Source: an uncultured Gammaproteobacteria bacterium (GTDB taxonomy: Bacteria; Patescibacteriota; Patescibacteriia; Magasanikbacterales; GWA2-37-8). From it: a DNA stretch of 64,000 nt. The position numbers and the translations under genes were made by a program. Positions within the stretch are counted from its first letter, which is position 1; each line of letters starts with the position of its first letter. The notes below the pieces were generated by a model, which saw nothing but the letters and a program-made list of their open reading frames with translations, was not told the origin of the DNA and searched no databases. The DNA lies in NCBI GenBank assembly GCA_964641245.1, contig CAZXML010000003.1:17395-81394 (forward strand), given 5' to 3'. Positions 9,635 through 62,138 of the stretch are shown here, piece after piece.

Positions 9635-9697
9635 TGGCAGTCTCCTTGTGCAGTTGGGGGTTTTGAATTGAAATGAACGAACCAACGCTTAAATATA

Positions 9698-16928: not shown

Positions 16929-17342
16929 TTACTTGATACGAGCGAAATAGGCACGGCTGTTGAAGCCGTTGACAAGCCAGTAGAAACGCGGGATCAAGCG
17001 ATTGCCGAGCCAGGAGAGGCCCGGGACGCGGAGGCCACCGCTAGGGACGGACAGAATAGTACGGGGTAGGAGAATGTACTTCTTGCCCCGCAACTTGGCG
17101 GGGATCTCTTCCTGATGCTCCAGCAAGTATTTGCTGTCGCGGAGGCCGAAGTTGGCCTTGAGCTTGACAGCTCGCCGGCACATGCTCTCGCCATCGATGG
17201 GCTCCTCACCCTCCTCTAGGACGGAGATGAACTCCAAGTCCTTGATCTGGAACTTCGTGGGCTCGACATCCGACAGCACACCACCGCTTCGTATCACCTG
17301 CTCGTGGAACTCGGTCAACTGCTCAAACATCGGTGTCGCCAT
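16929..17342 (-). CDS. GC-rich hypothetical protein (about 138 aa), unknown family
   Basis: Start MATPMFEQLTEFHEQ, 8 nt after AAGGAG. GC content and codon usage are unlike the neighbours (CTG/GCC/CGC-rich). No domain recognised. Confidence 0.5.
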   Translation of the reverse strand: MATPMFEQLTEFHEQVIRSGGVLSDVEPTKFQIKDLEFISVLEEGEEPIDGESMCRRAVKLKANFGLRDSKYLLEHQEEIPAKLRGKKYILLPRTILSVPSGGLRVPGLSWLGNRLIPRFYWLVNGFNSRAYFARIK

Positions 17343-17498
17343 TGTCATTGCTCCTTGGCAGCCATTGGAATCCTTACAAATATATCCGACATAATTGCCG
17401 AACATACCGAAGGTTGTCCAAATAGACACCGTCTTAGCTAGGAACCATTCCCAGCCTTCTTTGGGATTTATCTATATACTTATTGAAAAGAACACCAA

Positions 17499-28390: not shown

Positions 28391-28885
28391 TTAAGCGGTG
28401 TTTTTTCTTTTATACTCCAATTTTCGCCTTAAATTATCCATAAATACAATCTTTTCACAGGCAGATTTCTTCAGCAGTGTTGAACAAGTTTCCTTATATG
28501 GACTCATCACCGCGCCAAGCCTGCCTTTTTGATATAAGAAATTAACTAAACTGTAAAAATCGCCGTCACTTGTTATAATTACTGCCTTATCAAAATGATT
28601 TTCATAATAATCAATCATGCTTTGCAAAACTAAATCTGCATCTATATTCCCTTTATGAGAGCCGTCTTTATGGGGCAGTACCGGTTTAAATTTTAAAACA
28701 TAACCCGCCTTTTGTAAACTATCATATAGATCCTGATTTTGGGGTATGTAGCCAATGAATAGATAAGCAATTTCGACTTTATACTTATCCTTTAAGTATA
28801 CTCTAAATCTTTTAAAATCAAGATTCCAACCCAAACTTTGAACACCAAGATTTAAATTTTGGCTATCAATAAACGCGTAATTCAT
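28391..28885 (-). CDS. NYN-domain (LabA/DUF88-like, PIN-fold) putative RNase
   Basis: 164 aa. AFIDSQNL...IITSDGDF pattern. Confidence 0.65.
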   Translation of the reverse strand: MNYAFIDSQNLNLGVQSLGWNLDFKRFRVYLKDKYKVEIAYLFIGYIPQNQDLYDSLQKAGYVLKFKPVLPHKDGSHKGNIDADLVLQSMIDYYENHFDKAVIITSDGDFYSLVNFLYQKGRLGAVMSPYKETCSTLLKKSACEKIVFMDNLRRKLEYKRKNTA

Positions 28886-29057
28886 ACTGCTATAAATAGA
28901 TTATTACTGCCTCAAGCCACCACCACAAAGCGCAAATAGACAGCTCTGCCCGCATAATTTTATCTGGCAACTAATACTATAATACCTCAACTTGGTTTAC
29001 TTTTGAAATTGCTAAAGTGTCCGAGAATCAAAGTATCAAGAATCAAAGCACAAAGTA

Positions 29058-30314
29058 TCAATGACTGCGGGAAAAGGAAACGCCGATGTCATCATTGGAG
29101 ACGTCCGGATTCCAGGAGCTGACGATCGCGCCGCCAACATCGAACCCACCAACGCAGACGAGCTTACCATACGAAGAAAGGCGCCCTGTCCATGTTTGCG
29201 TTTTTTCTAATAAACGATCCTTATTGGGACCGGATTGAAAAAGAACGAGTAAATCATAGATTACCTCTGTTGGCGATTGTCGCGTAAGCCGGGTTAATTT
29301 AAGTTCAGAAAGTTGTTTTGCCGCTTTTTGCCAATTTGAACCGATCAATTGCTCCAGCGCGACTTTCTTCTTTTCAAACTCACCAATTGCCTCTTGATAT
29401 TGTTTTGGCAAAGGCCCGCCTTTGAATACTTTATCTTTCAAGTAACCGGCTAAAATGGCGGTTTGATTGATAAAATTTTTATTAGTTGAATCTGGAATAA
29501 CGTTCTTGGCCACCAATGCCCAACCAAGTTTCGGCGTGTCTTTTTTAAAAAAATCTTGATTTTTATACCAATCGGTGGAATAGAGAATTTTGCCGGACTT
29601 TTCCTTGTCCAGCTTTGGCTGGAGCGTTTCTTGCATTTTCTCCACAGTCAAAGGCTGGCCACCGGCTGTTTTGTCCACGCGCAATATCAAAAACTGACCA
29701 AGCTCTTTCGCTCGCTCTAAATCTTCTTTGGAAAATGGGATTTCCGGAATGTTCTCCGCTTCTAGCCGGATGCCAAAAGTTTTTTCCACTTCTTCGGGGC
29801 CAAAGACATTTTGCTTGCCGATGGTTTCAATGGCTGTTGTGATTTGTTCCGTACTGGCGGATTCCGAATTTATTTTGGAAGTGAGTGTTTCCAACTCACT
29901 TCTTATACCTCTTACCTCGTTAAGCCTGCCAGCCATCTCGGCCGCGTATTCCGGACCAAGTTTAGAAGCGAGCTCGGCTTGCTCCCGGCGTAATTCTTTA
30001 ATTTGTTCCGCTATCAATTGGCGTCCTTCTTTAATATCATCAAAATTTATTTGCGGCGGAATTTTTTCTTCTTTTTTTTCTTTGTGAAAAAATTTCTTTT
30101 TTTGTTTTGGCCGCGCCGATTCTTCGGTTTTCAAGACATCATTCATGATAGCCAGCTCTTCTGCCAAATCAAAAATTTGCTTGTCAATTTTAAACAATTC
30201 TTTTTCAATGACCTTTTTTTCTTCATCCGTCAAACTAGGCCTGCTCTCCGGAAATTTTATGATCTCCCCGGCAAATTCGGGGCGAAGATTTATAAATTTT
30301 GAATTTTCTGACAT
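29058..30314 (-). CDS. Hypothetical 418-aa protein with a long N-terminal coiled-coil and a C-terminal globular domain
   Basis: No family recognised. Contains A8/A7 homopolymer tracts encoding KQKKKFFHKEKKEEK. Translationally coupled to the upstream MazG-like ORF (4 nt gap). Confidence 0.5.
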   Translation of the reverse strand: MSENSKFINLRPEFAGEIIKFPESRPSLTDEEKKVIEKELFKIDKQIFDLAEELAIMNDVLKTEESARPKQKKKFFHKEKKEEKIPPQINFDDIKEGRQLIAEQIKELRREQAELASKLGPEYAAEMAGRLNEVRGIRSELETLTSKINSESASTEQITTAIETIGKQNVFGPEEVEKTFGIRLEAENIPEIPFSKEDLERAKELGQFLILRVDKTAGGQPLTVEKMQETLQPKLDKEKSGKILYSTDWYKNQDFFKKDTPKLGWALVAKNVIPDSTNKNFINQTAILAGYLKDKVFKGGPLPKQYQEAIGEFEKKKVALEQLIGSNWQKAAKQLSELKLTRLTRQSPTEVIYDLLVLFQSGPNKDRLLEKTQTWTGRLSSYGKLVCVGGFDVGGAIVSSWNPDVSNDDIGVSFSRSH

Positions 30315-30318
30315 AAAA

Positions 30319-30663
30319 TTAATTATATTTTCCTATTCTAGCCGCCACCGCGTACTGATAAAAATATTTTTCTAACGCTTCCGGTGAATCTTTATATTGA
30401 TTATCACCATAAAAAACATCCGCCAAAACTTCACGCGACCGGCACAGTTCTTTTACACGCGCGCCACTCCAACGAGCGTCGGCAATCGTAAAATCCAATA
30501 ACTCCAGTCCTCTTTCTAGCGCTTTTTTGGTCTGTTCTAAATTACCTTTTTTGCGCCAATTAGCTGCGCGCCCCACTTCACTCCCAACATTTCCAAGTTG
30601 TTCGCTCAAAGACATTTCTAACCATCTGCCTTCGGATAAATTTTTATGAATGTAGTCAGGCAT
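30319..30663 (-). CDS. MazG-like all-alpha nucleotide pyrophosphohydrolase domain protein (putative)
   Basis: 114 aa. LSEQLGNVGSEV...LERGLELLDFTIADARW resembles the two EExGE / EEIGD helices of small MazG/YpjD proteins. Catalytic Glu residues are partly substituted. Confidence 0.4.
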   Translation of the reverse strand: MPDYIHKNLSEGRWLEMSLSEQLGNVGSEVGRAANWRKKGNLEQTKKALERGLELLDFTIADARWSGARVKELCRSREVLADVFYGDNQYKDSPEALEKYFYQYAVAARIGKYN

Positions 30664-34019: not shown

Positions 34020-35384
34020 TTAGAGACTGTTAAGCGCGGCACGGGTGGCTGGACCAACCCAACCTGGGTATGGTTTGAGGCTCTGCGCTTTCTGAAAGGC
34101 TACCACCGCGGCTCTAGTAACTCCGCCAAAGAATCCGGTATCGGTAGGATAGGTGAAATAACCCAACTCTCTAAGTTTGGCTTGTAACGCCTTTACCTCG
34201 TTGCTTCTGGAACCTACTCTAAGCTGCGTACGGAACACGGCAACCGAAGAAGCGGTTGATGGAAGTGAAACTGAAGCTGGGGTTGCAGGTGTGGCTGGTG
34301 TGGCAGGAACAGCAGGAGAAACACCGGGAACTGCCGGAGTAGCCGGTGTGGCCGGAGTAGCGGGTACCCCAACGTTTCCACCGCCAACCATTGGTGCTCC
34401 ACAACCTTCGGTGGTCGCGCTGACAGTTGAAGACCAAGCTGTTTCTACAAGATCCCCATTCCGTCCCTTAACGCGGAATGAATGAGAAGTATTGCATGGA
34501 ATTTGAAGCACACTTAAACTGGTGGCTGTAGTCCATCCGGTATTAGTACCGGCGGTGATGTCTTCAGCATAGTAAGCGGTAGATTCTCCGGTCCATGAAA
34601 AAGCAAAATTATTTGACCCGGCAGTAACCGCTGCAGAAGAAGGGGTGTTGGCAAGAGTATACGCGCTAACACCAGTGCTGTAACTCGTTGTCTGGGTACT
34701 ATTACCATTAACGGCAGCCACCTGAATGGTATGCAAGGTATTCGCGGTTAATCCAAGAGTGGTAGTCCCACTGTTAGACCCAAGGTCCACAAATTCTATA
34801 GTGGCGGTAGCCGCTCCCCAAGTACTGTTGGATTGTAAGTACAAACCCTGAGCAGAATCAAAAACTATATAACTTGTCCCTACCGGATTGGTTGACGAGT
34901 TAACAGTTAATGTAAAGGTAGTGGGAGCGGTGGAAGTTGCGGTGGAAACTGTGCCCGGTGTAGCGGCATAAGTCCAAGCAGTGGTGCTGGCAAAAGGAGC
35001 TGATGAAGAAGCGACCGCGTCGCCACCACCTGCTCTAAAGTAGTAAAGTGTGTCTGTTGCCAAACCCACGAACATAAAAGCTCCCCAATAACCTTCAGTT
35101 ACTGTGGTGGTCGCTTGCGTGGTTGTTGGACCCCAGGTAGTGCCATTAGTAGAACTGCTGAAACCGAAAATCTGACTGGAGTCGTTGGAACTGGTGGAAA
35201 ACCGAAACAGAATCGCGTTCGTGGTGGTTACGGTAGCTGTTCCGGTAGTGGAATTTATCGCCGTTGCGGCGTTGGCGCTACTAATTTTCCAAACCAAAAA
35301 AGTTAGACTTAAAAGCCCAACCAAAAAGGCGAACACTAACATTTTAGATGTGTTTATTTTTTCCCGCAGAGAAGACAATGTCAT
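34020..35384 (-). CDS. Secreted/anchored Thr/Ser-rich surface protein with Fn3-like region, PAT-repeat linker and C-terminal peptidoglycan-binding domain (PG_binding_1)
   Basis: N-terminal TM/signal. (PATPAT)n linker. C-terminus VKALQAKLRELGYF...GFFGGVTRAAVVAFQKA. Confidence 0.55.
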   Translation of the reverse strand: MTLSSLREKINTSKMLVFAFLVGLLSLTFLVWKISSANAATAINSTTGTATVTTTNAILFRFSTSSNDSSQIFGFSSSTNGTTWGPTTTQATTTVTEGYWGAFMFVGLATDTLYYFRAGGGDAVASSSAPFASTTAWTYAATPGTVSTATSTAPTTFTLTVNSSTNPVGTSYIVFDSAQGLYLQSNSTWGAATATIEFVDLGSNSGTTTLGLTANTLHTIQVAAVNGNSTQTTSYSTGVSAYTLANTPSSAAVTAGSNNFAFSWTGESTAYYAEDITAGTNTGWTTATSLSVLQIPCNTSHSFRVKGRNGDLVETAWSSTVSATTEGCGAPMVGGGNVGVPATPATPATPAVPGVSPAVPATPATPATPASVSLPSTASSVAVFRTQLRVGSRSNEVKALQAKLRELGYFTYPTDTGFFGGVTRAAVVAFQKAQSLKPYPGWVGPATRAALNSL

Positions 35385-35627: not shown

Positions 35628-36485
35628 CTATTTCAACTGCGCCTCTACTTCCGAAGCAAAGTCACAGCCGACTTTGGTTAGGCCTTCGCCTAACTCAAAT
35701 CGTTCCATTCTGGCAATGGTAACATCGGCTCCGAGTAATTTCTGAATTGTTTTTTCTTCATCTTTGATAAACGGCTGTTCCAACAAACAAACTTCGCTGT
35801 AAAACTTGTCTAGCTTGCCTATTAGGATTTTTTCGATGGCGGCTTCCGGTTTGCCTTGTTGTTTTAGCTGTTCGGTGTAAATTTCTTTTTCTTTTTCTAC
35901 AACTTCTACCGGGACTTCGTCGCGACTGATATATTTTGGATTGGCCGCGGCGGCGTGCATGGCAATATCATTGGCCAAAGCAGAATCGGTAGTATTTTTT
36001 AATAGTATCAAAACCGAAATCTTTCCGCCCAAATGAGAATAGGCGCCAAAAACATCGGCGTCGGTTTTTTCCACCACAGCGAAACGGCGCAGAACAATTT
36101 TCTCTCCGATTTTTGCGGTGAGATTATTTATTTTTTCGGTAACAACCGGAGACATTGCCTCTTCCGTTGAAGCCGGCTTGTTCTCCAGTAAATTATCGGT
36201 TAATTCATTTACCAATTTTTTGAAGTCTTCGTTTTGCGCCACAAAATCGGTTTCGGAATTCACCTCTAAAACCACAGCGGTGTTGCCGCTTACTTTTACT
36301 TGCGTAGCGCCTTCGGCCGCAATTTTGTCTGTGCGTTTGGCCGCTTTCACAATCCCTTTTTTGCGGAGCAATTCCCCGGCCTTTTCCATATCCCCTTCGG
36401 CTTCATCCATCGCTTTCTTGCAATCCATCATACCGGCGCCGGTAAGGGAACGAAGTTTTGCTACGTCTGATGCGCTTATTGACAT
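35628..36485 (-). CDS. tsf: Elongation factor Ts
   Basis: 285 aa. LRSLTGAGMMDCKKAMDEAEGDMEKA. Confidence 0.9.
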   Translation of the reverse strand: MSISASDVAKLRSLTGAGMMDCKKAMDEAEGDMEKAGELLRKKGIVKAAKRTDKIAAEGATQVKVSGNTAVVLEVNSETDFVAQNEDFKKLVNELTDNLLENKPASTEEAMSPVVTEKINNLTAKIGEKIVLRRFAVVEKTDADVFGAYSHLGGKISVLILLKNTTDSALANDIAMHAAAANPKYISRDEVPVEVVEKEKEIYTEQLKQQGKPEAAIEKILIGKLDKFYSEVCLLEQPFIKDEEKTIQKLLGADVTIARMERFELGEGLTKVGCDFASEVEAQLK

Positions 36486-36596: not shown

Positions 36597-37379
36597 TTAC
36601 ACCGACTCATCTTTCTTCAGCGCCCGTCTCTCAATCTTTACCGCGTCGTGCTTTACCGGTTCTTCCTTGGCGCGTTCCAACTTTTTCTTTTCAAATTCTT
36701 TACGGCCTTCGTTTACGGCTTCGGCTACCATTTCCACAATTAATTTTATGGAGTTGACGGCATCGTCGTTGGCCGGGATGGCGTAGTTTACCTGTTCCGG
36801 ATTAACGTTGGTGTCGCAGACGGCCACGGTTGGCACTTCGGTTCTGGTAGCTTCGGCTAAAGCGGTTTTTTCGGTGCGCATATCGGCAATGTAAAGCGCG
36901 TCCGGCATTTTATCCAAAGAAGTTAAACCGATTAAATATTTATCCAATTTTTCCAATGTTTTTTTCATGGTGACCTGTTCTTTTTTGGTATATTTTTCGA
37001 TTTCTCCGGTGGCAAACATTTCTTTTAAGTTGTGATATTTTTTCAAACGGCGTTTCACTTCATCAAAATTTGTTAACAATCCGCCGATCCAGCGTTCTAC
37101 CAAATAAGGCATTTCACAACTGATGGCGGCCGCTTTGGTGATTTCTCTGGCCTGACGTTTGGTGCCGACAAATAAAATAACTTGACCTTTTGCGGCCAAA
37201 TTTTTGACGTAATTCAGAGCCTTCTCAAGCTGTTCTTGAGTTTTTTCCAAATCGATAATATGCACGCCGTTGCGTACGCCAAAGATGTATTGTTCCATCT
37301 TGGGGTGCCAGCGTGATTTTTGATGGCCAAAGTGTACTCCGGCCTTCAACATTTCCAACAATGTTGGCATTTTACTCAT
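36597..37379 (-). CDS. rpsB: 30S ribosomal protein S2
   Basis: 260 aa. LLEMLKAGVHFGHQKSRWHPKM. Confidence 0.95.
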   Translation of the reverse strand: MSKMPTLLEMLKAGVHFGHQKSRWHPKMEQYIFGVRNGVHIIDLEKTQEQLEKALNYVKNLAAKGQVILFVGTKRQAREITKAAAISCEMPYLVERWIGGLLTNFDEVKRRLKKYHNLKEMFATGEIEKYTKKEQVTMKKTLEKLDKYLIGLTSLDKMPDALYIADMRTEKTALAEATRTEVPTVAVCDTNVNPEQVNYAIPANDDAVNSIKLIVEMVAEAVNEGRKEFEKKKLERAKEEPVKHDAVKIERRALKKDESV

Positions 37380-37516
37380 ATTTTCCTTATAATTGCCTCC
37401 TAGCCTTGCCCCGGAATGGTCCGTAGGGAGGAAAAAAGTGGCTAGCGAGAGATTAAATTAAGATACGGACAGTATATATGAAGGAAAGAAATGAGTCAAG
37501 AGGTGTGTAAGCTGGT

Positions 37517-37544
37517 TTGACAAACCGCTAAAAAGTGATAGACT
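37517..37544 (+). promoter_or_regulatory. Sigma70-like promoter TTGACA-16-TAGACT for the TPR protein gene
   Basis: ttgacaaaccgctaaaaagtgatagact. RBS AAAGGAGGG 7 nt before ATG 37605. Confidence 0.55.
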
Positions 37545-37604
37545 ATGCAGTTGTCCGGGAAGGCGTTTTCCGGACAAAAAGTTTACCCAAAGGAGGGTCG
37601 AAAA

Positions 37605-39671
37605 ATGAGCAAGTTCATGCTGGTTTGTGTGGTCGTGGCAGTGGCGTCTTTTTCTTCAGCGAAGGATGCGGCCGCGCAGGACACGGCCCCAACCAAGCTG
37701 ATGGTGGCTCCGTTCCAAAATACGGGGTATGTGCGCGGGCAGGACTACATGCAGTTGCAGTTTGCGGCCACGGTGGCCGAACGTTTGGAAGACGTTTCCG
37801 GCTACGAGGTGGCCGACGGACCGCTAGTTCTGACTGCGGATTTGGCCGAACTGGCCACCATTCGCAACAACAAGGGCAAGATGTCGGATTTCAACTTGGC
37901 CGAAGCCAATCGGCTGGCCATGTCACTCGGCGCTTCTGTTTTCATCACCGGCCGTTACAACGGAACGGAGGAAAAGTGGTCGCTCACCGCCGAAGTCTAC
38001 TCGGCCCAAACAAACGGCCCGCGCCTAATTGGTAGCGCCACGGTGCATGGCAGTCTCATGACCAAAATCATGGTTCGCAAGCGAGCCAGATACATCGTGG
38101 ACATTCGCGCCATTCACAACCTGCTTTCGCAAGCGGTGGCCGGTGCCATGCGCGATGCCGGGTTGCCGAATTGTGACCTGGTTCAAACGACTCTGGAAAC
38201 TCCGTCCACCAACGATTCATGGGCGTTCATCCAACTGGGTCTGGCCTACATCCGCTACTTTAACCCGCCGGACGTAAAGCATCATCGCAGTACTTTTGAA
38301 CTCGCAAAGTATGCGGTACTGGTGGATCCAAAGTATGCGGAAGCGCAACGGTTCTACTCGGTCATGCTGGAAAAGCGCGCCGAAGAAAAACCGGCGGACC
38401 GTGGAAAAATTCTGGGACTCGTCCGTCTGCATTACGAAATGTCGCTGGCCCTCCGGCCAAACGACACGCGTACTCTGATTCCGCTGGCGAAAGTGGAATT
38501 GCAGTCAAAAAACGAAGTCATCGCCAAGGAGTACCTGGTACGCGCGGTGACAATTCATCCCAAGGACCCGGAACCGCACTTCTGGCTGGCCAAGGTTTAC
38601 CTGAAGCTGGAAAACTCGGATGCGGCCATTGCCGAATTTGAGATTGTGCGCACTCTGTCCCCCGCCCGTCTGGACGCGCGGAGAGAATTGGTCCGGCTTT
38701 ACAATGTACGGCTTCGGTACCTGGACTCGGCCACGGAGCTTCGTGTTATCGTTGCCGCCGAACCAAGCGATTTGCAGGCGGCCTTTGCTCTGCCGGCAGT
38801 TCTGCGCGCAGCCGATGAAATTCATTTGGCCGTGCAAGCCTACACAGACGCGGAACAACGGTTCCCCAAAGAAAAACGGTTCGCCAAATTCCGCGCCGAT
38901 GTGGAGCGGAGAGAAGGCGGATTGTTCGTCTGGGTAGATGCAATTAACGAAGGCAAATATACCGTTGAGAACATCAACGATATCCGCGATATTTTTCAAC
39001 TGGCCGCCAACGATGCCGCTATGGACTTTAGCCTGAACGGCAAAGAAGCCTGCGTCAACGGCCGCGGCGCGTCATCTATGTTGCTGGCGCAAGAAAATGA
39101 ACGGGTTCACTTGGAGGAACTGCAAGCCTTGCGCGCGTACGCGAATACTATCAGAACGGTCATTAAGCAAGGCAACGACACCGCGTTCACCACCAACGAA
39201 CGCGACGATGCCGTAACTTTGCTGACCGCTCTGAAAACATCCGAACGCGACAGCCGCGAAATGCAAATGCAGACCGCCAAGACCATTCAATCGCTGATGC
39301 GGAAAAAGAGCTGCAAAGAAATTGGCCCGGACGTTCGCATGGCGACGGTTAACGAACTGGAAAAACGGAACCTAAATTGGCAAGTGGTATTGCCGCCCGT
39401 AAAGTCAAAATCGTACGTACTGGAGATTCCCACATCTTCGGTCCGGCCGATTCACTTATTCGTGAACAATAAGACCGGACATTCCAAATGTTATTTGTTC
39501 CTGGACGGCAAACAGTTAGGCGTTATTGCCGCCGGCCAAACGAATAAGGACTTTACCGTCAGTATCGGCAATCACACCTACTGCCTGGAAGAAAAAGCGG
39601 AAGACTGTGACAAGCCAGGAACTATCCGCCAGATGTTCTTTTCCGAAGGAATTATTTTGGAGAGAAAGTAG
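37605..39671 (+). CDS. GC-rich secreted TPR-repeat protein
   Basis: Start MSKFMLVCVVVAVASFSSA (signal peptide). Central TPR-like helical repeats (KVYLKLENSDAAIAEFEIV...). GC about 57%. Confidence 0.55.
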   Translation: MSKFMLVCVVVAVASFSSAKDAAAQDTAPTKLMVAPFQNTGYVRGQDYMQLQFAATVAERLEDVSGYEVADGPLVLTADLAELATIRNNKGKMSDFNLAEANRLAMSLGASVFITGRYNGTEEKWSLTAEVYSAQTNGPRLIGSATVHGSLMTKIMVRKRARYIVDIRAIHNLLSQAVAGAMRDAGLPNCDLVQTTLETPSTNDSWAFIQLGLAYIRYFNPPDVKHHRSTFELAKYAVLVDPKYAEAQRFYSVMLEKRAEEKPADRGKILGLVRLHYEMSLALRPNDTRTLIPLAKVELQSKNEVIAKEYLVRAVTIHPKDPEPHFWLAKVYLKLENSDAAIAEFEIVRTLSPARLDARRELVRLYNVRLRYLDSATELRVIVAAEPSDLQAAFALPAVLRAADEIHLAVQAYTDAEQRFPKEKRFAKFRADVERREGGLFVWVDAINEGKYTVENINDIRDIFQLAANDAAMDFSLNGKEACVNGRGASSMLLAQENERVHLEELQALRAYANTIRTVIKQGNDTAFTTNERDDAVTLLTALKTSERDSREMQMQTAKTIQSLMRKKSCKEIGPDVRMATVNELEKRNLNWQVVLPPVKSKSYVLEIPTSSVRPIHLFVNNKTGHSKCYLFLDGKQLGVIAAGQTNKDFTVSIGNHTYCLEEKAEDCDKPGTIRQMFFSEGIILERK

Positions 39672-39725
39672 ATATTATAAATTAGACTACTCCCTTCCGA
39701 CGCATTTTGTCGGGGGGGAATTTTT

Positions 39726-40679
39726 TTATTTAGATATTTTTCGCTGTCTCGTTCTATTTTTTAGGTACCGCTCAACGGCTTCTTTTGAAGTTAACCAATC
39801 TCTGCCTTCTTTGTACGCTTCCAACTTTCCTTGCCTGGCAAGCAAGTTTAGATATTTTGCAGAAAATGGAGTTATTTTCGATATTTCAACCAGCGATACA
39901 AATTTTTCTTGTTTTGTAGTTGCCGGAGTTAAAGTTTTTAGATAAATATCAAGCGATCGCTCTATGGATTGAGCGATAAATTTTACTAGCGGTTCATATT
40001 TGCCTTTGTCCGCCTTATCCAGCACATCATAATATTTTTTTCGGTCGGTTTTCATAATGACCACTAATGGGTACCCGGCTTGCATCAAAAACAGATTCAT
40101 CGTCAAGCGCGCGGTTCGGCCATTGCCGTCAAAAAAAGGATGGATATGGACTAGTCTATGATGTAACAAAGCAGAAAGTTCAATAATATTCAACTTGTTT
40201 TTTTGTGAATTCAGCCAAATAATTAAATCCCTCATCAGATTAGGTATTTGTAATGCGTCCGAAGGAGTATGATCAGCGCCGCCAATAATTACATTGGCAT
40301 TTCTGTATCGGCCGGCCCACTCTTTGTCGGTCTCCTGCAAAATAATTTGGTGTAGATTTTTTATAAGCATTTCAGAAACAGTGTGCTTTTTGTCTTTATC
40401 TATCAAGTCATATAGATATTCCAGCGCGGCGTGGTGGTCTTTTGCCTCCAGATGATCTTTTAGGGGTTTTCCTTTCACCGTCAGACCCTCGTTTATGACC
40501 AAAAAAGTCTCCTTTAAAGTTAAAGAGTTGCCTTCAATAGCATTGGAGTTATATGTCATTTCGATTTGAAATTTTTCTCGAAGTTTTTGTACCGCAGATT
40601 TCGGTAACGGACGAAGTTTGTTAAGTTTGGCGAGTTTTTCTTCTAATCGAGCTTTTATGATTGGTGATAGGTAAGTCAT
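39726..40679 (-). CDS. Fic-family protein (AMPylase-type Fic/DOC domain with C-terminal wHTH)
   Basis: HPFFDGNGRTARL core motif. N-terminal SNAIEGN matches the (S/T)xxxE(G/N) intrinsic inhibitory motif. Confidence 0.85.
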   Translation of the reverse strand: MTYLSPIIKARLEEKLAKLNKLRPLPKSAVQKLREKFQIEMTYNSNAIEGNSLTLKETFLVINEGLTVKGKPLKDHLEAKDHHAALEYLYDLIDKDKKHTVSEMLIKNLHQIILQETDKEWAGRYRNANVIIGGADHTPSDALQIPNLMRDLIIWLNSQKNKLNIIELSALLHHRLVHIHPFFDGNGRTARLTMNLFLMQAGYPLVVIMKTDRKKYYDVLDKADKGKYEPLVKFIAQSIERSLDIYLKTLTPATTKQEKFVSLVEISKITPFSAKYLNLLARQGKLEAYKEGRDWLTSKEAVERYLKNRTRQRKISK

Positions 40680-40714
40680 ATAAAATGCTTAATATGGTTT
40701 AGTTAGATATTCAC

Positions 40715-40743
40715 AGTATACCATATTAAGGAATTGCGGTCAA
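40715..40743 (-). promoter_or_regulatory. Sigma70 promoter TTGACC-17-TATACT (extended TGG) for fic
   Basis: Minus strand reads ttgaccgcaattccttaatatggtatact. Confidence 0.6.
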
Positions 40744-40881
40744 GTTTTATATTGATGCCTATCATAACACAAAAGACTGACGTTAAGCAAACCAGTCTCC
40801 ATTGACTTTTTTCCCTTTTTGGAGTAAAACTAGACTAGCTAATACTCTTTGACAATTGAACGAAAAAAAGGAGAAACGTCA

Positions 40882-43473
40882 ATGTGGAACAAGGTTCGGG
40901 CAGTAGTTTGGTTTTTTGTTATTGTAGCAATTACCTGCTGGATTTGGGACTGTTTTCAAACCACAATTTCACCTGGATTGGTGTGGATTACCCTGCCGAC
41001 GATAGAATTCGCCCGGTGGTCTTTCACCCTAAAGATCCCACCCCTGCCCTTCTACCCAGCCGCCATTTTCTTTTTGTCGGCAATCAGAGCCCGCCCGCCC
41101 TACTTCCGGGAAAACCCGAACATGATTCGGTTCTACCGGTTGCGAAATCTGTCATACGCGATATCAGTCGTGGTTACAACTCTCTTTGTGGTATCTCTCC
41201 AAAATAACATAATCGCCGACTACCATCAGGAACTCGCGGATGTGTTGGCGTTCAAACCGCCAATTTCCACCCGGGTCTATGACAGTACCGGATGGGAAGA
41301 AATCTGCCGGTTCAGTATGGAAGACCGCGACTACATTTCCATTGACGAAATTCCCCAAATTGTACGCTATGCGGTGGTGGCGGCCGAAGATCAGCGCTTT
41401 TACGAACACGACGGCGTTGATCCAATTGCCGTCATCCGGGCGGCGCGCAAAAATTACGAAAATGACCAAATCAAGCAGGGTGGTTCTACTATCACCCAGC
41501 AGGTCATCAAACTAAAGGTAATTAAGTCTAATGAGCAAACCAAGGCGCGCAAGATTCGGGAAGTGTTTCTGGCTACCAAGCTGGAACAAATGGCTTCCAA
41601 GGACAAAATCCTGGAAATCTACCTGAATCACGTTTATCTGGGACGCGCCTACGGCATCAAAGCCGCGGCCATGGCCTATTACGGCAAGAACGTAAAAGAC
41701 ATGACCATCGGCGAAGCCGCCTTTTTGGCCGGCATGCCCAAAGCGCCATCCAACTTTTCTCCTTCTATGAACTTTGCCCGCGGCAAAGAACGGCAAGCCT
41801 ATGTGCTGGGCCGGATGCGCGAGCAGGGTTTCATTACTGAAGAAGAGATGCGGACGGCGCTCCATGAAGCGACAGTTGTAATTAACAATCAGCGTCCGCT
41901 GAACCGAACCTCCGCCCCCTACTTCTGCGAGCACCTGCGTCAACAATTAGAGCGGGAATATGGTCAGGACCTGATATACAAAAAGGGACTGGTTGTTTTC
42001 ACCACTCTAAATATGAAGATGCAACGCGCCGCCGAAGCCGCGGTCCAAAACGGACTAGTGGATTTGGAACGCCGGCTTGGCTTCAACGGTCCGGAAGGAC
42101 ACGATGAAGCTTTTACCGGTGTCTGTGATTCTATTGGCGAAGATGTTGCTGACGGCAGTTTTGAGAACGCGCAAGTGGTCTCAAACACCGGCGACAAAAT
42201 CATGGTCTGCGCGCGCGGAAACGTTTTCCCGATGTATCAGGAAGATGTAAAGCATATTCAGACATGGGAAAAAAATACCGACAGCCAATTGGTTGCCGGC
42301 GACAACATGACGGTACGAATTATTACTGTTGCAGAGAAAGTGCTGAAGAAGAAAAAGGAAACTCACGAAGTCCGCTACGCCATTTCGGCGCGCCGGACCG
42401 GCGGGGCCAATAACGCGGAAGCTCTGCAGGCGGCCATGGTGGTGGTTGATCCAAAAAACGGCGCCCTACTGGCGCTGATTGGCGGATACGACTACAACGA
42501 AAACCAATTCAACATGGCCATTCAGGCAAAACGCCAGCCCGGATCGTCGGTCAAGATATATTTCTACCTGGCCGCGCTGATGCACGGTAAAACGGTAACC
42601 GATATCGTAAACGATCACGCTGTTTGTTACCCGTCCGCATCCGGAATTTGGTGTCCGACAAACTACGTCGGCCCAAACACTAAGAATCAATATATGGGAG
42701 CGGTCGACCTTCGCACCGCCCTGGCCAAATCGCTCAACTCCATCTCGGTGCAATTGCTTCACGAGGTTGGAGTGGATGAAGGCATCCGGACAATGCGCAA
42801 GCTGGGAATTACCTCGCCCATTGAACGGGTTCTGCCCATTGCGGTTGGCGCTATCGACATTACACCATGGGAGCACACTTACGGATACGCAACGGTAGCG
42901 GCACAAGGCCGTAAAATGCCACACCAGTGTTATCATCCGGGCCAAAAAGTCTGCGATGCCAATTCCGGTGTGTTTATTCTGAAAGTATTGAACGCGGCTA
43001 ACGGAGAAGTAATTTACGAATACGTTCCGCCAAAACCGGAACAAGCCGTCCCCGCCGCCGACGCCTACACCATGACTTATCTGATGGAAGGCGTGGTGCA
43101 ATTCGGCACCGGACGCAAGGCGCAGGAACTGCAAAGACCGGTGGCCGGAAAAACCGGCACCACCAATGAATTCAAGGACACTTGGTTCATGGGTTTCACC
43201 ACCGACGTGGTGGTGGGAGTCTGGGTTGGACGACAGCGTCCGATTACGATTGCCAAAGAGGCAACCGGCGGTACCGTGGCTCTGCCCATCTGGCTGGCCT
43301 TCATGAAAGAGGCTCATCCGGACACGCCGGCCCGCGAGTTCCCGGTTCCCAACGACATCATATTTGTAGCCGACCCGGACGGCAAGCTCATTCCCTACCG
43401 GCGCGGAACAGTTCCCGCCAAAAACCTAAGCAGTACAACTACTCCGATAGTTATTGAATCAAACGAATTCTAA
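40882..43473 (+). CDS. Class A penicillin-binding protein (PBP1A-type: GT51 transglycosylase + transpeptidase), GC-rich
   Basis: Start MWNKVRAVVW, 8 nt after AGGAG. EDQRFYEHDGVD (GT51). SSVK, SLN and KTGTT transpeptidase motifs. Confidence 0.85.
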   Translation: MWNKVRAVVWFFVIVAITCWIWDCFQTTISPGLVWITLPTIEFARWSFTLKIPPLPFYPAAIFFLSAIRARPPYFRENPNMIRFYRLRNLSYAISVVVTTLFVVSLQNNIIADYHQELADVLAFKPPISTRVYDSTGWEEICRFSMEDRDYISIDEIPQIVRYAVVAAEDQRFYEHDGVDPIAVIRAARKNYENDQIKQGGSTITQQVIKLKVIKSNEQTKARKIREVFLATKLEQMASKDKILEIYLNHVYLGRAYGIKAAAMAYYGKNVKDMTIGEAAFLAGMPKAPSNFSPSMNFARGKERQAYVLGRMREQGFITEEEMRTALHEATVVINNQRPLNRTSAPYFCEHLRQQLEREYGQDLIYKKGLVVFTTLNMKMQRAAEAAVQNGLVDLERRLGFNGPEGHDEAFTGVCDSIGEDVADGSFENAQVVSNTGDKIMVCARGNVFPMYQEDVKHIQTWEKNTDSQLVAGDNMTVRIITVAEKVLKKKKETHEVRYAISARRTGGANNAEALQAAMVVVDPKNGALLALIGGYDYNENQFNMAIQAKRQPGSSVKIYFYLAALMHGKTVTDIVNDHAVCYPSASGIWCPTNYVGPNTKNQYMGAVDLRTALAKSLNSISVQLLHEVGVDEGIRTMRKLGITSPIERVLPIAVGAIDITPWEHTYGYATVAAQGRKMPHQCYHPGQKVCDANSGVFILKVLNAANGEVIYEYVPPKPEQAVPAADAYTMTYLMEGVVQFGTGRKAQELQRPVAGKTGTTNEFKDTWFMGFTTDVVVGVWVGRQRPITIAKEATGGTVALPIWLAFMKEAHPDTPAREFPVPNDIIFVADPDGKLIPYRRGTVPAKNLSSTTTPIVIESNEF

Positions 43474-43476
43474 CCT

Positions 43477-43517
43477 TCCCCTCCGTTAGCGCAGTGCTGG
43501 CGGAGGGGTTTTTTTTA
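43477..43517 (+). terminator. Rho-independent terminator
   Basis: cccctccg...cggagggg stem followed by T8. Confidence 0.75.
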
Positions 43518-43794: not shown

Positions 43795-44100
43795 ATGCAG
43801 AAAAAAATACATCCGGAATACAACAATGACACAGAGGTTTCATGCGCTTGCGGCAATAAATTTATTACCGGCAGTACCATGAAGACCATCCGCGTGGAAC
43901 TTTGCAACAAGTGCCATCCTTTTTATACCGGCAAACAAAAATTTGTAGACACTGCCCGCCGTGTAGAAAAATTCCAAGAACGCACCGACAAGAAAACTGC
44001 CGCTTCCGCTGTCCGCAAAGGCAAGAAAGTAAAGAAAGCAGCCACAGCTGTAAAGAAGACCGCCAAGAAAGCGGAGAAAAAAGAAAAATCCAAAGCTTAG
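43795..44100 (+). CDS. rpmE: 50S ribosomal protein L31 with K-rich C-terminal extension
   Basis: [19 protein letters not shown]...[12 protein letters not shown]. Confidence 0.9.
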
Positions 44101-44228: not shown

Positions 44229-45323
44229 TTGCTAATTAATCCTATGAACAACAAATATAAAGATCTACAATCCAAATTCGCCAAGCTGGAAGCCGATTTG
44301 CAAAATCCGGTTGTGCTTGGTGATTCCAGAAAAGTAAAAGAAGTTGCCCAGGAATATAATGAATTAAAACCGGCCATGGAAAAAATAAAAGAACTGGCCG
44401 GAGTGGAAAACAGCATCGCGGAAACGGAACTGATTATAAAAGGCAATGATGAAGAAATGAAAGAAATGGCCACTGCAGAAATTGATGATTTAGAAATTAA
44501 GAAATTAAATTTAGAAAAAGAGCTGGACGAAATGACCCGTCCGCAGGATCCGTTTGATAAAAAAAATGTGATTGTGGAAATACGCGCCGGCGTGGGTGGA
44601 GATGAGTCCGCTCTTTTTGCCGCGGATTTGTACCGCATGTACAGCCGTTATGCCGAAAATAAAGGCTGGAAAGTAAACACGCTGGATTCAAACAAAATCG
44701 GCATCGGCGGTTTCAAAGAAATTATATTTTCCATAAAAGGCAAGAACGTCTACAAAGATTTAAAATATGAAATGGGCGTGCACCGCGTGCAAAGAGTTCC
44801 GGACACGGAAAAAGCCGGACGCATTCATACCTCCACCGCCACGGTAGCTGTGATGCCGGAAATAGAAGAAACCGAATTTAAAATTGATCCAAAAGATTTG
44901 CGCATAGACACTATGACAGCCGGCGGACACGGCGGTCAAAGCGTGAACACCACTTACTCTGCCGTGCGCCTTGTGTATATTCCAACCGGCATGATCGTGC
45001 AGTGCCAAGACGAACGTTCACAAACCGCCAACCGCGAAAAAGCCATGGCCGTAATGCGCTCCCGCTTGTTTGCCATAGAACAGGAAAGAAAAATGAAAGA
45101 ACTGACCGAAAAAAGGCGCGCCCAAATTGGCAGCGGCGACAGAAGCGAAAAAATCCGCACCTACAATTTCCCTCAAGATCGCATTACCGACCACCGCATT
45201 CACCAAAGCTGGAACAGCATCCCCCGAATTTTAGACGGCGAACTAGAACCGATTATTTTGGCCGTGCGCGCGGCGGATTACGCGGGGTTGGATTATTCCG
45301 GCACGGATGAAGACGAAGAATAA
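44229..45323 (+). CDS. prfA: Peptide chain release factor 1
   Basis: GGQ motif ([18 protein letters not shown]). Followed by prmC. The true start may be MNNKYKDLQ at 44247. Confidence 0.85.
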
Positions 45324-46182
45324 TATGTTGGATTTTGATTTGCTAAAGGCGCATGCCATAAAAAAACCAAAAGAATTTTTATACTCTCATCCCGAATATC
45401 GTTTATCAGTTTGGCAAAAACTGCGTTTAAAATATTTTCTCTCCCTGCGCAAAAAGGGCTATTCCGTAGCCGTCATTACCAAGCATAAAGAATTTTACGG
45501 CTTGGATTTTTTTGTGAATAAACACGTTTTAATCCCCCGCCCCGACACCGAGTTGATGGTGGCAGAAGCGATCGAAGAAATTAAAAAAAATGATAAGATA
45601 ATTTTAGTTGATGTTGGTACCGGAAGCGGGTGCATACCAATTTCTATTTTAAAAAATATACCAAACCAAATACAAACATTTGCGACCGATATTTCGAACG
45701 CGGCTTTGCGAGTAGCGAAAAAAAATGCCCGAATACATAATGTGAACATTAAATTTTTCCACGGTAACTTGCTTGAACCAATTTTCAAAAACCCCTCTCT
45801 CTGTCTCTCCCCTTATAGGGGAGAGAGGAACGAACTCCTCTCTGTAGTTCCCTCCCCTATAAGGGGAGGGGCGAAGGGTGGGGTTTTCATCACCGCCAAC
45901 CTCCCCTACCTTACCAAACAACAATTTCAATCCGAACCGAGCATTCAAAAAGAACCAAAAATCGCACTCACGGCAAAAAATAACGGCTTGGCTTTATACG
46001 AAGAATTATTTAATCAAATAAAAAATGCCGGTCTGACAGCAACTATACTTACAGAAATCGACCCTTCTCAAACCGATGCAATCTCCCAACTTATAAACCA
46101 ATATCTTCCCGGCTCAAAAATTGAAATAAAAAAAGACCTCGCCGGGCGAGATCGTTTAGTAAAAATTGTCATGTCATCCTGA
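45307..46182 (+). CDS. prmC: Release factor glutamine methyltransferase PrmC/HemK with in-frame repeat insertion
   Basis: VLIPRPDTE and VGTGSGCI motifs. The NPPY box reads NLPY. A 30-aa insertion ([30 protein letters not shown]) is encoded by a family E palindrome. The stop codon is supplied by a family A repeat. Confidence 0.8.
45792..45886. repeat. Family E palindromic element pair inside prmC (in-frame)
   Basis: cccctctctctgtctctccccttataggggagagg ... ttccctcccctataaggggaggggcgaagggtgggg. Confidence 0.8.
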
Positions 46183-56202: not shown

Positions 56203-56748
56203 ATGGCCAAACAAACACTCAACCTTGGCAAGCGCTGGTACGTGCTACACACTTACAGCGGTTACGAGGAAAACGTAAAAACAAATTTGGAACAACGCCG
56301 TGAATCTTTTGCCATGCAAGACAAAATTTTTAATATTTTGGTTCCTAAGGAAAAGAAAATAAAAATTAAAAACAGCAAACGGTTGGTTGTAGAAGAAAAA
56401 ATGTTCCCGGGTTATGTACTCGTAGAAATGATTGTGACCGATGATTCCTGGTACGTAGTCCGCAACACCCCAAACGTCACCGGCTTCGTTGGCTCCGGCA
56501 CCACCCCTACTCCAATAGACCAGGCAGAAGTAGACGGCTTGGTAAAAAGAATGTCCGCTTCCGAACCACAACATCAAATTAATTTTGAAATTAACGAATT
56601 GGTGCGGATTACCGATGGACCGTTCAAAAACTTTGAGGGTAAGGTCAGTAACGTTGATCAGGAGAGAGGCAAGGTTAAAGTTCTTATCACCATGTTCGGA
56701 CGCGAAACACCGGTAGAATTGGATGCGATGCAGGTAAAAAAAGCGTAA
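56203..56748 (+). CDS. nusG: Transcription termination/antitermination factor NusG
   Basis: 181 aa. WYVLHTYSGYE and KOW motif. Confidence 0.9.
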   Translation: MAKQTLNLGKRWYVLHTYSGYEENVKTNLEQRRESFAMQDKIFNILVPKEKKIKIKNSKRLVVEEKMFPGYVLVEMIVTDDSWYVVRNTPNVTGFVGSGTTPTPIDQAEVDGLVKRMSASEPQHQINFEINELVRITDGPFKNFEGKVSNVDQERGKVKVLITMFGRETPVELDAMQVKKA

Positions 56749-56773
56749 TTAAATAAAGAAAGTGATCGCGGAC

Positions 56774-56912
56774 TGTCATTCTGAGCACAGCGAAGAATCC
56801 CTCTCTGTCATTCTCGCCAAAGCGGGAATCCAGTGTCCGATTGTCTGGATTCCCATTGTTATGGGAATGACAATTAAACGGACAGAGATCCTTCACTACG
56901 TTCAGGATGACA
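56774..56912. repeat. Family B element (inverted) with a nested family D element (56816-56872)
   Basis: tgtcattctgagcacagcgaagaatccctctc[tgtcattctcgccaaagcgggaatccag...ggattcccattgttatgggaatgaca]attaaacggacagagatccttcactacgttcaggatgaca. Confidence 0.8.
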
Positions 56913-56963
56913 AGTACCGGCTTCTCGGTCATAATTCTTAATTCATAATTCTTACTTAAATCT

Positions 56964-57389
56964 ATGGCAAAAAAATTAATGGCGCAAATCAAATTGCAGA
57001 TTGTCGGCGGAGCCGCTAACCCGGCCCCACCAGTCGGCCCGGCTTTGGGCCAGCACGGCGTAAATATCCAGGGCTTCTGTAAGGAATTCAACGAAAAGAC
57101 CCAGGATAAAAAAGGCGAAGTAGTGCCGGTAATCATTTCCGTTTACGAAGACCGCAGTTTCAGTTTCATAATGAAAACTCCTCCGGTTCCGGAATTGATT
57201 AAAAAAGCGGCGGGTATAGAAAAAGGTTCTGCCAAACCTTTGCAAGACAAAGTTGGCAAAATCACCAAAGCCCAAGTTCGCCAAATCGCCGAAAAGAAAA
57301 TGCCGGACTTAAACTGCCACACCGTAGAAGCCGCCATGAGTATGGTGGAAGGTACGGCCAGAAATATGGGTGTTACCATTGAGGGATAA
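56964..57389 (+). CDS. rplK: 50S ribosomal protein L11
   Basis: [32 protein letters not shown]. Confidence 0.95.
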
Positions 57390-57429
57390 CACGAATGCGC
57401 TTGAGCGCCACAAATAACACAAATAAAAA

Positions 57430-57462
57430 ATGAAGACGTCCCGGTTGGGGCGTCTTTTAGTT
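57430..57462. terminator. Rho-independent terminator
   Basis: agacgtcccggttggggcgtct + tttagtt. Confidence 0.7.
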
Positions 57463-57484
57463 GTGCTGTTTTAACGGAAATGTG

Positions 57485-58042
57485 TTACGGACAAACGCCG
57501 AGCGTGTCGCCGTGCGCCAGATGGGCGGGAACGGCTGGTGTGCCGACACAGATGTTGTGAAGATTGGCCGGATTGCCGGGTGGGTAATGGCAAAGAAGGG
57601 CCTTACCGGACGCGCAGGATTCATCATCCCCGTCGTCGCCGTCTCCGTCGCAGACGCACTGGCCGTCCACGCAGATTTGACCTTCGGGGCAGTCGTCGTC
57701 GGAGTAGCACCCCGGAACGCCGGCATCGGAAACGCCGACAACACCACCATCATGAACTTCGCCAACTCCTCCGTCAGAAGTGCCGATGACGACATTCGCA
57801 TCAGCAGTGTCAACAGTATTGCTGTCGGGCAGGCTGGCATCAGCGTTCATTTCACCTCCGTCAACCTGGGTCATGCTAGCATCGTCCTGGCTCTGCGTCG
57901 CATCCATACTATCTGCCGGCACCATGCCGTCAGCCAGCAATACCCCGCCATCCAGGTCATAGCCACCAGGAGGACTTTGGCCACAGCCAGCCATGAGCAC
58001 AAAAGCAAAGAGCGTTGTCATTCGGTTCATCATCGTTCGCAT
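57485..58042 (-). CDS. GC-rich acidic Cys-rich lipoprotein (Asp/Gly-rich, about 62% GC)
   Basis: Signal + lipobox LMAGC. AGGAG 6 nt before ATG. CPEGQICVDGQCVCDGDGDDG. Confidence 0.5.
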   Translation of the reverse strand: MRTMMNRMTTLFAFVLMAGCGQSPPGGYDLDGGVLLADGMVPADSMDATQSQDDASMTQVDGGEMNADASLPDSNTVDTADANVVIGTSDGGVGEVHDGGVVGVSDAGVPGCYSDDDCPEGQICVDGQCVCDGDGDDGDDESCASGKALLCHYPPGNPANLHNICVGTPAVPAHLAHGDTLGVCP

Positions 58043-58147
58043 CGGATTCTCCTTTTTGGTTCTGTGTTCGGAACAGGTTTGGGTTTATTCTATATAGCTC
58101 CACATATAACCTCACTCGCTCGGAAGTAGCCAAGCATGCTTGGCACT

Positions 58148-62064: not shown

Positions 62065-62138
62065 GCGCCCGTAGCTCAGTGGTTAGAGCACTGCCCTTAT
62101 AAGGCAGGGGTCCTCGGTTCAAGTCCAAGCGGGCGCAC
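62065..62138 (+). tRNA. tRNA-Ile with anticodon TAT (UAU)
   Basis: gcgcccg ta gctcagtggttagagc a ctgcc cTTATAa ggcag gggtc ctcgg ttcaagt ccaag cgggcgc a. Isoleucine-type D-arm. Perfect acceptor and anticodon stems. One C-A mismatch in the T-stem. No encoded CCA. Confidence 0.7.

Follow-up and report, generated by a model that had tools for sequence, protein, structure and literature searches.

A GC-rich TPR-PBP1A gene pair in a Patescibacteria contig as a probable ancestral cell-wall module, with an AT-rich fic cassette as the variable piece

Introduction

In Escherichia coli, class A penicillin-binding proteins (PBPs) are activated by the Lpo proteins LpoB and LpoA, and the N-terminal domain of LpoA is TPR-like. 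Mosaic pbp genes formed by homologous exchange between related species are known from Streptococcus and Neisseria. FICD (HYPE) is the metazoan endoplasmic reticulum AMPylase/deAMPylase of BiP (PDB 4u04, 6i7g). SoFic is a single-gene class II Fic system of anti-phage defence that acts by abortive infection (reviewed in PMC12249575), and a small AS1-like gene has been described downstream of E. coli SoFic (PMC12249575). GC-biased gene conversion in bacteria was reported by Lassalle et al. (2015, PMC4450053). In the literature on Fic proteins in Patescibacteria and the Candidate Phyla Radiation (CPR), nothing specific was found. The locus described here lies in a 64,000-nt stretch of contig CAZXML010000003.1 (assembly GCA_964641245.1), hereafter the window, and holds genes for a secreted TPR protein, a Fic protein, and a class A PBP between tsf-rpsB and rpmE-prfA.

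The original prediction, made from the nucleotide letters, had taken the GC-rich TPR and PBP genes as the horizontally acquired part of this locus. The comparison with relatives largely reverses that central inference. With a probability of about three in four, the TPR-PBP pair is a cell-wall module that is ancestral in, and specific to, a small clade of Patescibacteria, and the fic cassette is the horizontally variable piece, sitting in the second of two variable slots.

Results

Coordinates are those of the window, and gene identities were assigned using Pfam and NCBIfam, which bore out the original gene calls; the proposed gene starts agree with homologue lengths and ribosome-binding sites (RBSs). 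The backbone order is tsf-rpsB-[slot 1]-TPR-[slot 2]-PBP1A-rpmE-prfA, with fic occupying slot 2. For comparison, the contigs encoding the closest PBP and TPR homologues (the relatives, each with an L number) were fetched and annotated, and their taxonomy was taken as Patescibacteria from other named database matches. The TPR gene adjoins the PBP gene in the contexts of eight relatives (L001, L003, L005, and L169 to L173) and in the window too, where fic stands between the two. L001, with a PBP 69% identical in amino acids, has the order tsf-rpsB-hyp120-TPR-PBP-rpmE-prfA-prmC-DUF3048-L25, which is the window order minus fic. The order is tsf-rpsB-[three AT-rich genes]-TPR-PBP in L169 and rpsB-[three genes]-TPR-PBP in L170, and the rpsB product of the window is 97.7% identical to that of L169 and 88.8% identical to that of L001. 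TPR directly adjoins PBP in L005, and L007 has PBP followed by rpmE, with TPR not on the contig. In the genomes of 63-66% GC (L003, L171, L172), TPR-PBP lies beside mur genes or a PUA methyltransferase gene, and in L173 TPR and PBP are adjacent in divergent orientation. The pair remains adjacent though the surrounding gene order and orientation change.

The base composition was compared with that of the 53 other open reading frames (ORFs) of the window, which have a GC of 0.434 +/- 0.040 and a GC at third codon positions (GC3) of 0.446 +/- 0.055. The TPR gene has GC 0.543 and GC3 0.646 (GC3 z 3.6), the PBP gene GC 0.523 and GC3 0.600 (z 2.8), and fic GC 0.382 and GC3 0.368 (z -1.4). The predicted mosaic of two GC-rich genes with an AT-rich fic between them is real, but its values had been misjudged: the pair is at 52-54% GC and not at 55-58%, with 0.55-0.58 reached only by peak 500-bp windows, and the ribosomal flanks measure about 44% and not about 40%. 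Slightly more than half of the excess is at GC3, and the remainder is at GC1 and GC2 (Ala and Arg up, Lys down). Of the CTG/GCG/CGC-rich codon usage that had been proposed, CTG is strongly raised in TPR/PBP over the other ORFs (0.53 vs 0.15 of Leu codons, with TTA at 0.02 vs 0.29), but GCG is not enriched (0.31 vs 0.29); among Arg codons, CGG is at 0.33 vs 0.14.

The GC excess, especially that at GC3, is a standing property of the TPR-PBP module in every low-GC relative examined (Table 1). The pair is GC-richer than its neighbours in each of them, with a smaller excess in the distant L001, L170, and L173, and in the GC-rich relatives it has a small overall excess and none at GC3. Close relatives (L005 and L169, and L007 for PBP) carry the same genes at the same locus and at the same GC, which is the very finding that the original prediction had named as its refutation.

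Table 1. GC content of the TPR and PBP genes and of their neighbours in the relatives
Relative	TPR GC	PBP GC	Neighbour GC
L005	0.547	0.523	0.467, 0.512 (downstream genes)
L007		0.518	
L169	0.524	0.529	0.42-0.46 (tsf, rpsB)
L170	0.451	0.458	0.38-0.44
L001	0.465	0.472	~0.40
L173	0.430	0.451	0.30-0.36 for 4/6; other two 0.42, 0.54
GC-rich relatives	0.64-0.71	0.66-0.67	0.60-0.69

At four-fold sites, the divergence of L169 from the window is 0.298 in tsf, 0.312 in rpsB, and 0.307 in TPR. TPR has therefore been co-inherited with its flanks since the split of the window and L169. The nonsynonymous divergence (dN) of PBP between the window and L001 is 0.216, compared with 0.232 for DUF3048 and 0.218 for hyp322 among envelope genes and genes of no known function. 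No tRNA, integrase, or flanking repeats were found at the TPR-PBP borders, the nearest tRNAs being at 5177 and 62065. Measured by the usual marks of a genomic island, the pair has an atypical composition but is present at the site in close relatives.

What the relatives lack is fic. Using blastn, homology to the closest relative, L005, ends at 39727 and resumes at 40759, so that 1,031 bp in the window replace a 56-bp spacer in L005. For L007 the point of return is 40760; immediately left of it, L007 carries an AT-rich Bro-N gene with a full-length match (E 5.4e-129) to PDC-S13, a candidate defence family of PADLOC. Altogether, seven relatives have a short spacer of their own between TPR and PBP and no fic. 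No target-site duplication or terminal repeats of the cassette, no recombinase gene inside it, and no integrase or tRNA at the site were found; a 14-nt near-repeat (39725-39738 and 40698-40711) is internal to the cassette and probably due to chance. No close copy of fic was found in viral contigs or GenBank phages (best 42%), so that nothing speaks for a phage as its vehicle.

From a metagenome scan came 80 fic loci, each of them homologous to the window over 39723-40752 only (~1,030 bp, the ORF and ~70 bp upstream). None of the neighbour genes is conserved, the largest neighbour family being found in 4 of 77 loci, and 93% of the locus pairs have no shared flank homology. The GC3 of fic follows the GC of its flanks (0.28-0.54) weakly, with a slope of 0.42 and r of 0.54. 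Named matches were to Magasanikbacteria, Uhrbacteria, Kuenenbacteria, Buchananbacteria, Roizmanbacteria, and Parcubacteria. AT-richness in all hosts, varied contexts, and presence/absence polymorphism therefore point to a mobile cassette. Among the 77 complete copies, the median amino acid identity is 0.86, the median proportion of synonymous differences (pS) 0.71, dN 0.08, and the ratio of dN to synonymous divergence (dS) ~0.04; against its nearest relatives, the window fic has dN of 0.02-0.05 at dS of 0.9-1.5. Judged by these rates, fic is an old gene under very strong purifying constraint. A recent sweep of fic by transfer was considered and is ruled out by the synonymous saturation.

Two further observations concern fic copies elsewhere. 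Nine extra Fic-like ORFs stand beside fic among the 77 loci, as tandem copies in some genomes. L126/L124 and L133 have in common a block of ~1.4 kb that is 96.6% identical and includes fic (CDS 99.4%), with little other flank homology, which therefore indicates recent relocation or exchange.

The PBP gene is itself mosaic among the relatives. Over the first 353 shared columns there are two deeply divergent allele types, one in the window, L005, L007, and L170 and the other in L169 and L001. The 5' half of PBP in L169 has an identity of 0.70 to L001 and 0.575 to the window, in conflict with its window-like TPR (0.75) and rpsB (0.98). The allele switch lies near the 3' end of TPR, and the four-fold divergence of the PBP 5' half is 0.48 vs 0.30 for the flanks. 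These alignments show that homologous allele exchange among relatives occurs at the locus, at the same place as the cassette insertion. To that extent they partly favour exchange here, but of PBP 5' alleles among relatives and not of new functions from a foreign donor. GC3 in both allele types is ~0.6 in the window group, and it is ~0.45-0.48 in L001 and L170. Within a group GC3 is alike across allele types, and the excess therefore follows lineage and locus and not allele origin.

The PBP belongs to the PBP1A family (NCBIfam TIGR02074 PBP_1a_fam, 553.6 bits vs a cut-off of 508.75). Its catalytic motifs are all intact. It has the GT51 motifs EDQRFYEHDG (aa 169), GGSTITQQ (aa 200), and RKIRE (aa 223) with Pfam Transgly at E 1.6e-59, and the transpeptidase motifs SSVK (aa 555), SLN (aa 617), and KTG (aa 757) with Pfam Transpeptidase at E 4.3e-24. 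Its N-terminus (aa 1-112; 40882-41220) has two hydrophobic segments, aa 3-29 and 93-112, in place of the usual single anchor; this region, where the two divergent allele types are found, is missing ~33 aa of the L005 and L007 proteins.

The TPR protein has a signal peptide (...ASFSSAKDAAAQ) without a lipobox Cys, although the distant homologue P0128 (L171) has ...LFIISCSS. The signal peptide is followed by a TolB-N/LpoB-like alpha/beta N-domain (aa ~30-185), TPR repeats (190-435), long helices (439-588), and a beta-sandwich (615-688). The full model has a pLDDT of 83.6 and the N-domain alone 89.1, with fold scores for the N-domain of 11.6 for TolB, 10.1 for CsgG, 9.9 for PelC, and 8.4 for LpoB; Foldseek against the PDB with the full model gave no more than generic TPR proteins, OGT and MamA among them. 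Four regions, namely the N-domain and C-terminal part of the TPR protein and the N-terminus and inter-domain region of the PBP, gave nothing useful and no LpoB match with Pfam at E <= 10. The TPR family is small, with 9 close clusters among 5.8 billion proteins and 31 representatives among 1.84 billion proteins, mostly of 660-800 aa and with the same layout. Every member with a visible context adjoins this PBP lineage, one of them in divergent orientation. From fold and gene neighbourhood, the TPR protein may serve the PBP as a partner or regulator, much as the Lpo proteins do in E. coli.

The Fic protein scores 85.3 bits with Pfam Fic (cut-off 24), and its active-site motif HPFFDGNGRTAR at aa 180 fits HxFx(D/E)GNGRxxR. 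The inhibitory motif SNAIEG (SNAIEGN) is at aa 45 and aligns with TVAIEGN of FICD. It precedes the Fic motif on the same polypeptide, and the protein is therefore class II, as had been predicted. The PADLOC SoFic model PDLC03963 matches aa 11-307, nearly the full length, at E 3.8e-37. That fic has no antitoxin partner was also borne out, since the unit common to the 80 loci is the ORF with ~70 bp upstream and has no conserved neighbour; the conserved unit ends at the fic stop codon and ~70 bp upstream, and there is therefore no room for another ORF.

The fic promoter is sigma-70-like, with a -35 TTGACC (40743-40738), 17-bp spacing, and a -10 TATACT (40720-40715). It holds an 11-bp inverted repeat, CTTAATATGGT / ACCATATTAAG, with arms at 40720-40730 and 40688-40698 that are 21 bp apart; the left arm borders on the -10, and ~10 nt separate the right arm from the fic ATG downstream. 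Of the 67 distinct upstream sequences, 57 have both 10-bp arm cores exactly, the spacer is 21 bp always, and the only two exact copies of the half-site in the 64-kb window are those at the fic promoter. The arms are nearly invariant while the synonymous sites of fic are saturated, and sequence-specific protein recognition is therefore favoured over RNA pairing. The C-terminal HTH of Fic is predicted to bind the inverted repeat and would in this way autoregulate transcription. The enzyme would be auto-inhibited until triggered. Once active, it would AMPylate a cellular target that is highly conserved, and its role would be that of a SoFic-like defence by abortive infection or of a reversible regulator like FICD.

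At about 20 fic loci (L089-L091, L093, L094, L099-L101, L105, L107-L111, L115, L116, L119, L120, and L161) an extra conserved hairpin, ...GGTGTTTTTCGCCTGTGCGAACAGGCAAAAAACCGATT..., was seen ~60 bp upstream of the fic -35, between T- and A-runs. It may be the bidirectional terminator of a longer cassette version.

Features of the locus are listed in Table 2. Of the promoters, RBSs, and terminators that had been called for the two GC-rich genes, the TPR promoter-like site, the RBSs, and both terminators stand, but the TTGACA near PBP (at ~40849) has no -10 partner in the scan, and a conserved TTGACT...TAAAAC lies farther upstream. The RBS AAAGGAGAA precedes the PBP ATG at 40882. The TPR terminator hairpin is also kept in L005 and L169.

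Table 2. Features of the tsf-prmC region, in window coordinates
Feature	Position	Strand	Basis or remark
tsf	35628-36485	-	Pfam EF_TS; left conserved flank
rpsB	36597-37379	-	Pfam Ribosomal_S2; left conserved flank
rpsB-TPR spacer (variable slot 1)	37380-37604	+	empty in the window; TPR promoter-like site and RBS inside
TPR promoter-like site TTGACA-16-TAGACT	37517-37544	+	promoter scan
TPR RBS AAGGAGG	7 nt upstream of ATG 37605		
TPR gene	37605-39671	+	secreted protein, 688 aa
TPR terminator, hairpin and T-run	39691-39719 (feature 39691-39728)	+	left junction of fic insertion
fic CDS, 317 aa	39726-40679	-	Pfam Fic and weak HTH_17
fic cassette, 1,031-bp indel vs closest relative	39728-40758	-	blastn vs L005, L007, L001
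fic promoter and putative operator	40680-40752	-	
Conserved PBP upstream region TATCATAACACAAAAGA..., TTGACT...TAAAAC, RBS AAAGGAGAA	40759-40881	+	right junction of slot 2
Class A PBP (PBP1A family), 863 aa	40882-43473	+	Pfam Transgly, Transpeptidase; TIGR02074
PBP terminator, 14-bp stem then T-run	43478-43508	+	terminator scan
rpmE	43795-44100	+	Pfam; right conserved flank
prfA	44229-45323	+	Pfam; right conserved flank
prmC	45307-46182	+	Pfam; right conserved flank

Slot 1 holds one hypothetical gene, hyp120, in L001 (7267-7629), three AT-rich genes of GC 0.24-0.29 with weak type II restriction endonuclease and N6-methylase matches in L169 (2088-4445), and hyp111-TrmB-hyp143 in L170 (818-2608).

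Other observations were made in the window and on one relative. Two insertions relative to L001 lie outside the slots: 28391-30663, between aspS and gap, with an AT-rich NYN nuclease gene (GC 0.325) and three ORFs, and 34020-35384, between the PUA methyltransferase gene and tsf, with a Thr/Ser/Ala-rich secreted protein that has PG_binding_1. GC-rich ORFs without a Pfam match are found at 8444-9685 (GC 0.531) and 16929-17429 (GC 0.551, GC3 0.725), and the compositional heterogeneity of the window therefore extends beyond TPR-PBP. In the region 56203-58129, nusG and rplK are followed by no rplA, and a minus-strand Asp/Gly-rich ORF (57485-58042; GC3 0.60, lipoprotein-like signal ...LMAGCGQ, no Pfam match) is in its place. 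A tRNA-Ile with anticodon TAT (UAU) is at 62065-62138; the UAU anticodon is an uncommon bacterial means of decoding AUA. The 6-kb contig of L007 carries at its ends (9-141 and 5858-5990) inverted copies of the rpmE 3' region, which are either an assembly artefact or a real inversion.

Discussion

The mosaic is real yet is ordinary genome dynamics: a conserved backbone with two small variable slots, one of them with the fic cassette. Several points nevertheless weigh against the assignment of TPR-PBP as ancestral and fic as the variable, possibly defensive, piece. Every relative is a metagenome contig, and the absence of fic was scored at this locus only. The shift in GC3 and codon usage is large (CTG 0.53 vs 0.15), and its causes are candidates only. 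GC-rich genomes hold the deepest relatives of the module, and PBP identity is almost equal to L001 (0.687) and to the 63%-GC L003 (0.653), whereas DUF3048, the sole other shared marker and a presumed orthologue, has 0.67 to L001 vs 0.33 to L003, a contrast that might point to transfer of the module across lineages. The module may have been imported long ago from a relative richer in GC, ahead of the radiation of the window, L005, L007, and L169. On the functional side, the HTH_17/excisionase-like domain at the C-terminus of Fic (aa ~264-309) scores 23.9 bits, below the Pfam cut-off of 27, and its binding to the repeat is a prediction. The NCBIfam SoFic equivalog NF046030 gives 37.7 bits vs a cut-off of 550. 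At similar dS, fic is held more tightly than rpsB between the window and L001 (dN 0.061 at dS 1.0), and such extreme conservation fits a defence role poorly. The putative TPR-PBP interaction is read from fold and gene neighbourhood, and the TolB-N-like fold is common to many unrelated envelope lipoproteins.

The alternative that survives best, though it is unlikely, takes up this old import as a homologous replacement: the TPR-PBP alleles would have been overwritten from a GC-richer clade member before that radiation, by recombination in the conserved rpsB and rpmE flanks, and the GC3 excess would be donor composition that is incompletely ameliorated. L169, with a window-like TPR and an L001-like PBP 5' half, is consistent with such an event, as are the presence of the module in GC-rich (63-66%) clade members, the near-equidistance of PBP to L001 and L003, and an excess that is greatest in the window group and lower in L001 and L170. 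Against it, GC3 tracks host lineage and locus and not PBP allele origin, the independent low-GC lineage L173 has a similar excess in another gene arrangement, and the TPR, PBP, and rpsB topologies are concordant save for L169.

It is very improbable that TPR and PBP came to this site by horizontal transfer from a GC-rich donor into an AT-rich genome in which fic and the ribosomal genes are native. The high GC3 z-scores and strongly shifted codon usage would fit such a transfer, as would a promoter-like site and terminator for each gene and the Myxococcales and Deltaproteobacteria (~35-41%) as the nearest PBP relatives outside Patescibacteria. A contig scan with the PBP alignment gave, among the matches listed, Proteobacteria and Desulfobacterota at 31-38% identity and no Patescibacteria, from motifs that are universal to PBPs. 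But L001, L169, and L170 have the pair at this very locus and L005 has the two genes side by side, the GC of the pair in close relatives is identical in level, the four-fold divergence of TPR matches that of tsf and rpsB, the border search for tRNA, integrase, and flanking repeats was negative, and the piece absent from relatives is fic. Equally improbable is that fic was ancestral at the site and was deleted independently in the relatives: its copies are old (synonymous sites saturated, nearest copy 84% identical in nucleotides to that of the window) and the gene is very widespread in Patescibacteria, but between TPR and PBP it is absent from seven independent relatives, whose short spacers differ, the 56-bp spacer of L005 is unrelated, and the cassette occurs in unrelated contexts with identical sharp ends in 77 loci.

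For the GC3 excess of an ancestral TPR-PBP module, the preferred guess is that the locus is a recombination hot spot, where GC-biased gene conversion or the repeated import of alleles from GC-richer relatives would keep GC3 high. A third candidate cause is a genome-wide shift away from a GC-rich ancestral state, behind which the pair would lag.

A wider reading, possible but doubtful, is that the fic unit is a new minimal mobile or addictive element (1 kb, single-gene, recombinase-less), that the TPR protein is the first regulator in the CPR dedicated to a class A PBP, or both. The Fic protein could then be an autoregulated FICD-like switch on a universally conserved target, e.g., a chaperone or translation factor. 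It would not be an ordinary fast-evolving defence gene, with a protein more conserved than S2 and a palindrome nearly invariant across class-level lineages. The polymorphic N-terminal region of the PBP could be an interaction or selection surface.

In this low-GC Patescibacteria genome, composition alone can mislead, with the GC-rich genes as the old residents and the AT-rich gene as the insert, and island callers that work from GC or codon usage would wrongly flag core genes of the cell wall here. Two integration slots and a recombination breakpoint beside the only class A PBP gene of the window are useful for the study of strain variation in uncultivated bacteria. The locus also offers two leads, a narrow protein family that may regulate CPR peptidoglycan synthesis and a widespread, unusually conserved Fic-HTH cassette with a candidate operator.

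Comparison with known systems

Like the Lpo activators, the TPR protein of the window is extracytoplasmic, is genetically tied to a class A PBP, and has TPR repeats. It differs in having no lipobox and in being much larger, at 688 aa with extra helical and beta-sandwich domains; with LpoB it has no sequence similarity, and TolB, CsgG, and PelC score above LpoB. As in the mosaic pbp genes of Streptococcus and Neisseria, the PBP 5' allele types conflict with TPR and rpsB, with a breakpoint near the TPR 3' end, but the variable part is the N-terminal membrane region and the glycosyltransferase half and not the transpeptidase domain, and the case has no link to antibiotic selection. GC-biased gene conversion is matched by a GC3 excess confined to a locus with independent signs of recombination and common to relatives whatever their allele; it is a candidate cause only.

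Human FICD is the best PDB match of the window Fic (E 2.9e-46 over aa 18-251), with an inhibitory motif of the same type (TVAIEGN vs SNAIEGN) and likewise the Fic motif. Unlike FICD, the window Fic has no N-terminal membrane anchor (no hydrophobic segment) and no TPR match, has a C-terminal HTH instead, and is found in a bacterial context. From SoFic it differs in that the Shewanella oneidensis structures match only aa 143-242 at E ~6e-6, in that the fic stop codon (39726-39728) abuts the T-run of the TPR terminator and leaves no room for an AS1-like gene, and in that fic is extremely conserved (dN/dS ~0.04 or lower) with an invariant promoter palindrome. The two are alike in being class II, with the inhibitory motif N-terminal in the same chain and an added C-terminal domain, and the window fic, like SoFic, stands alone in variable contexts; its slot is used in a relative by a PDC-S13 defence candidate.

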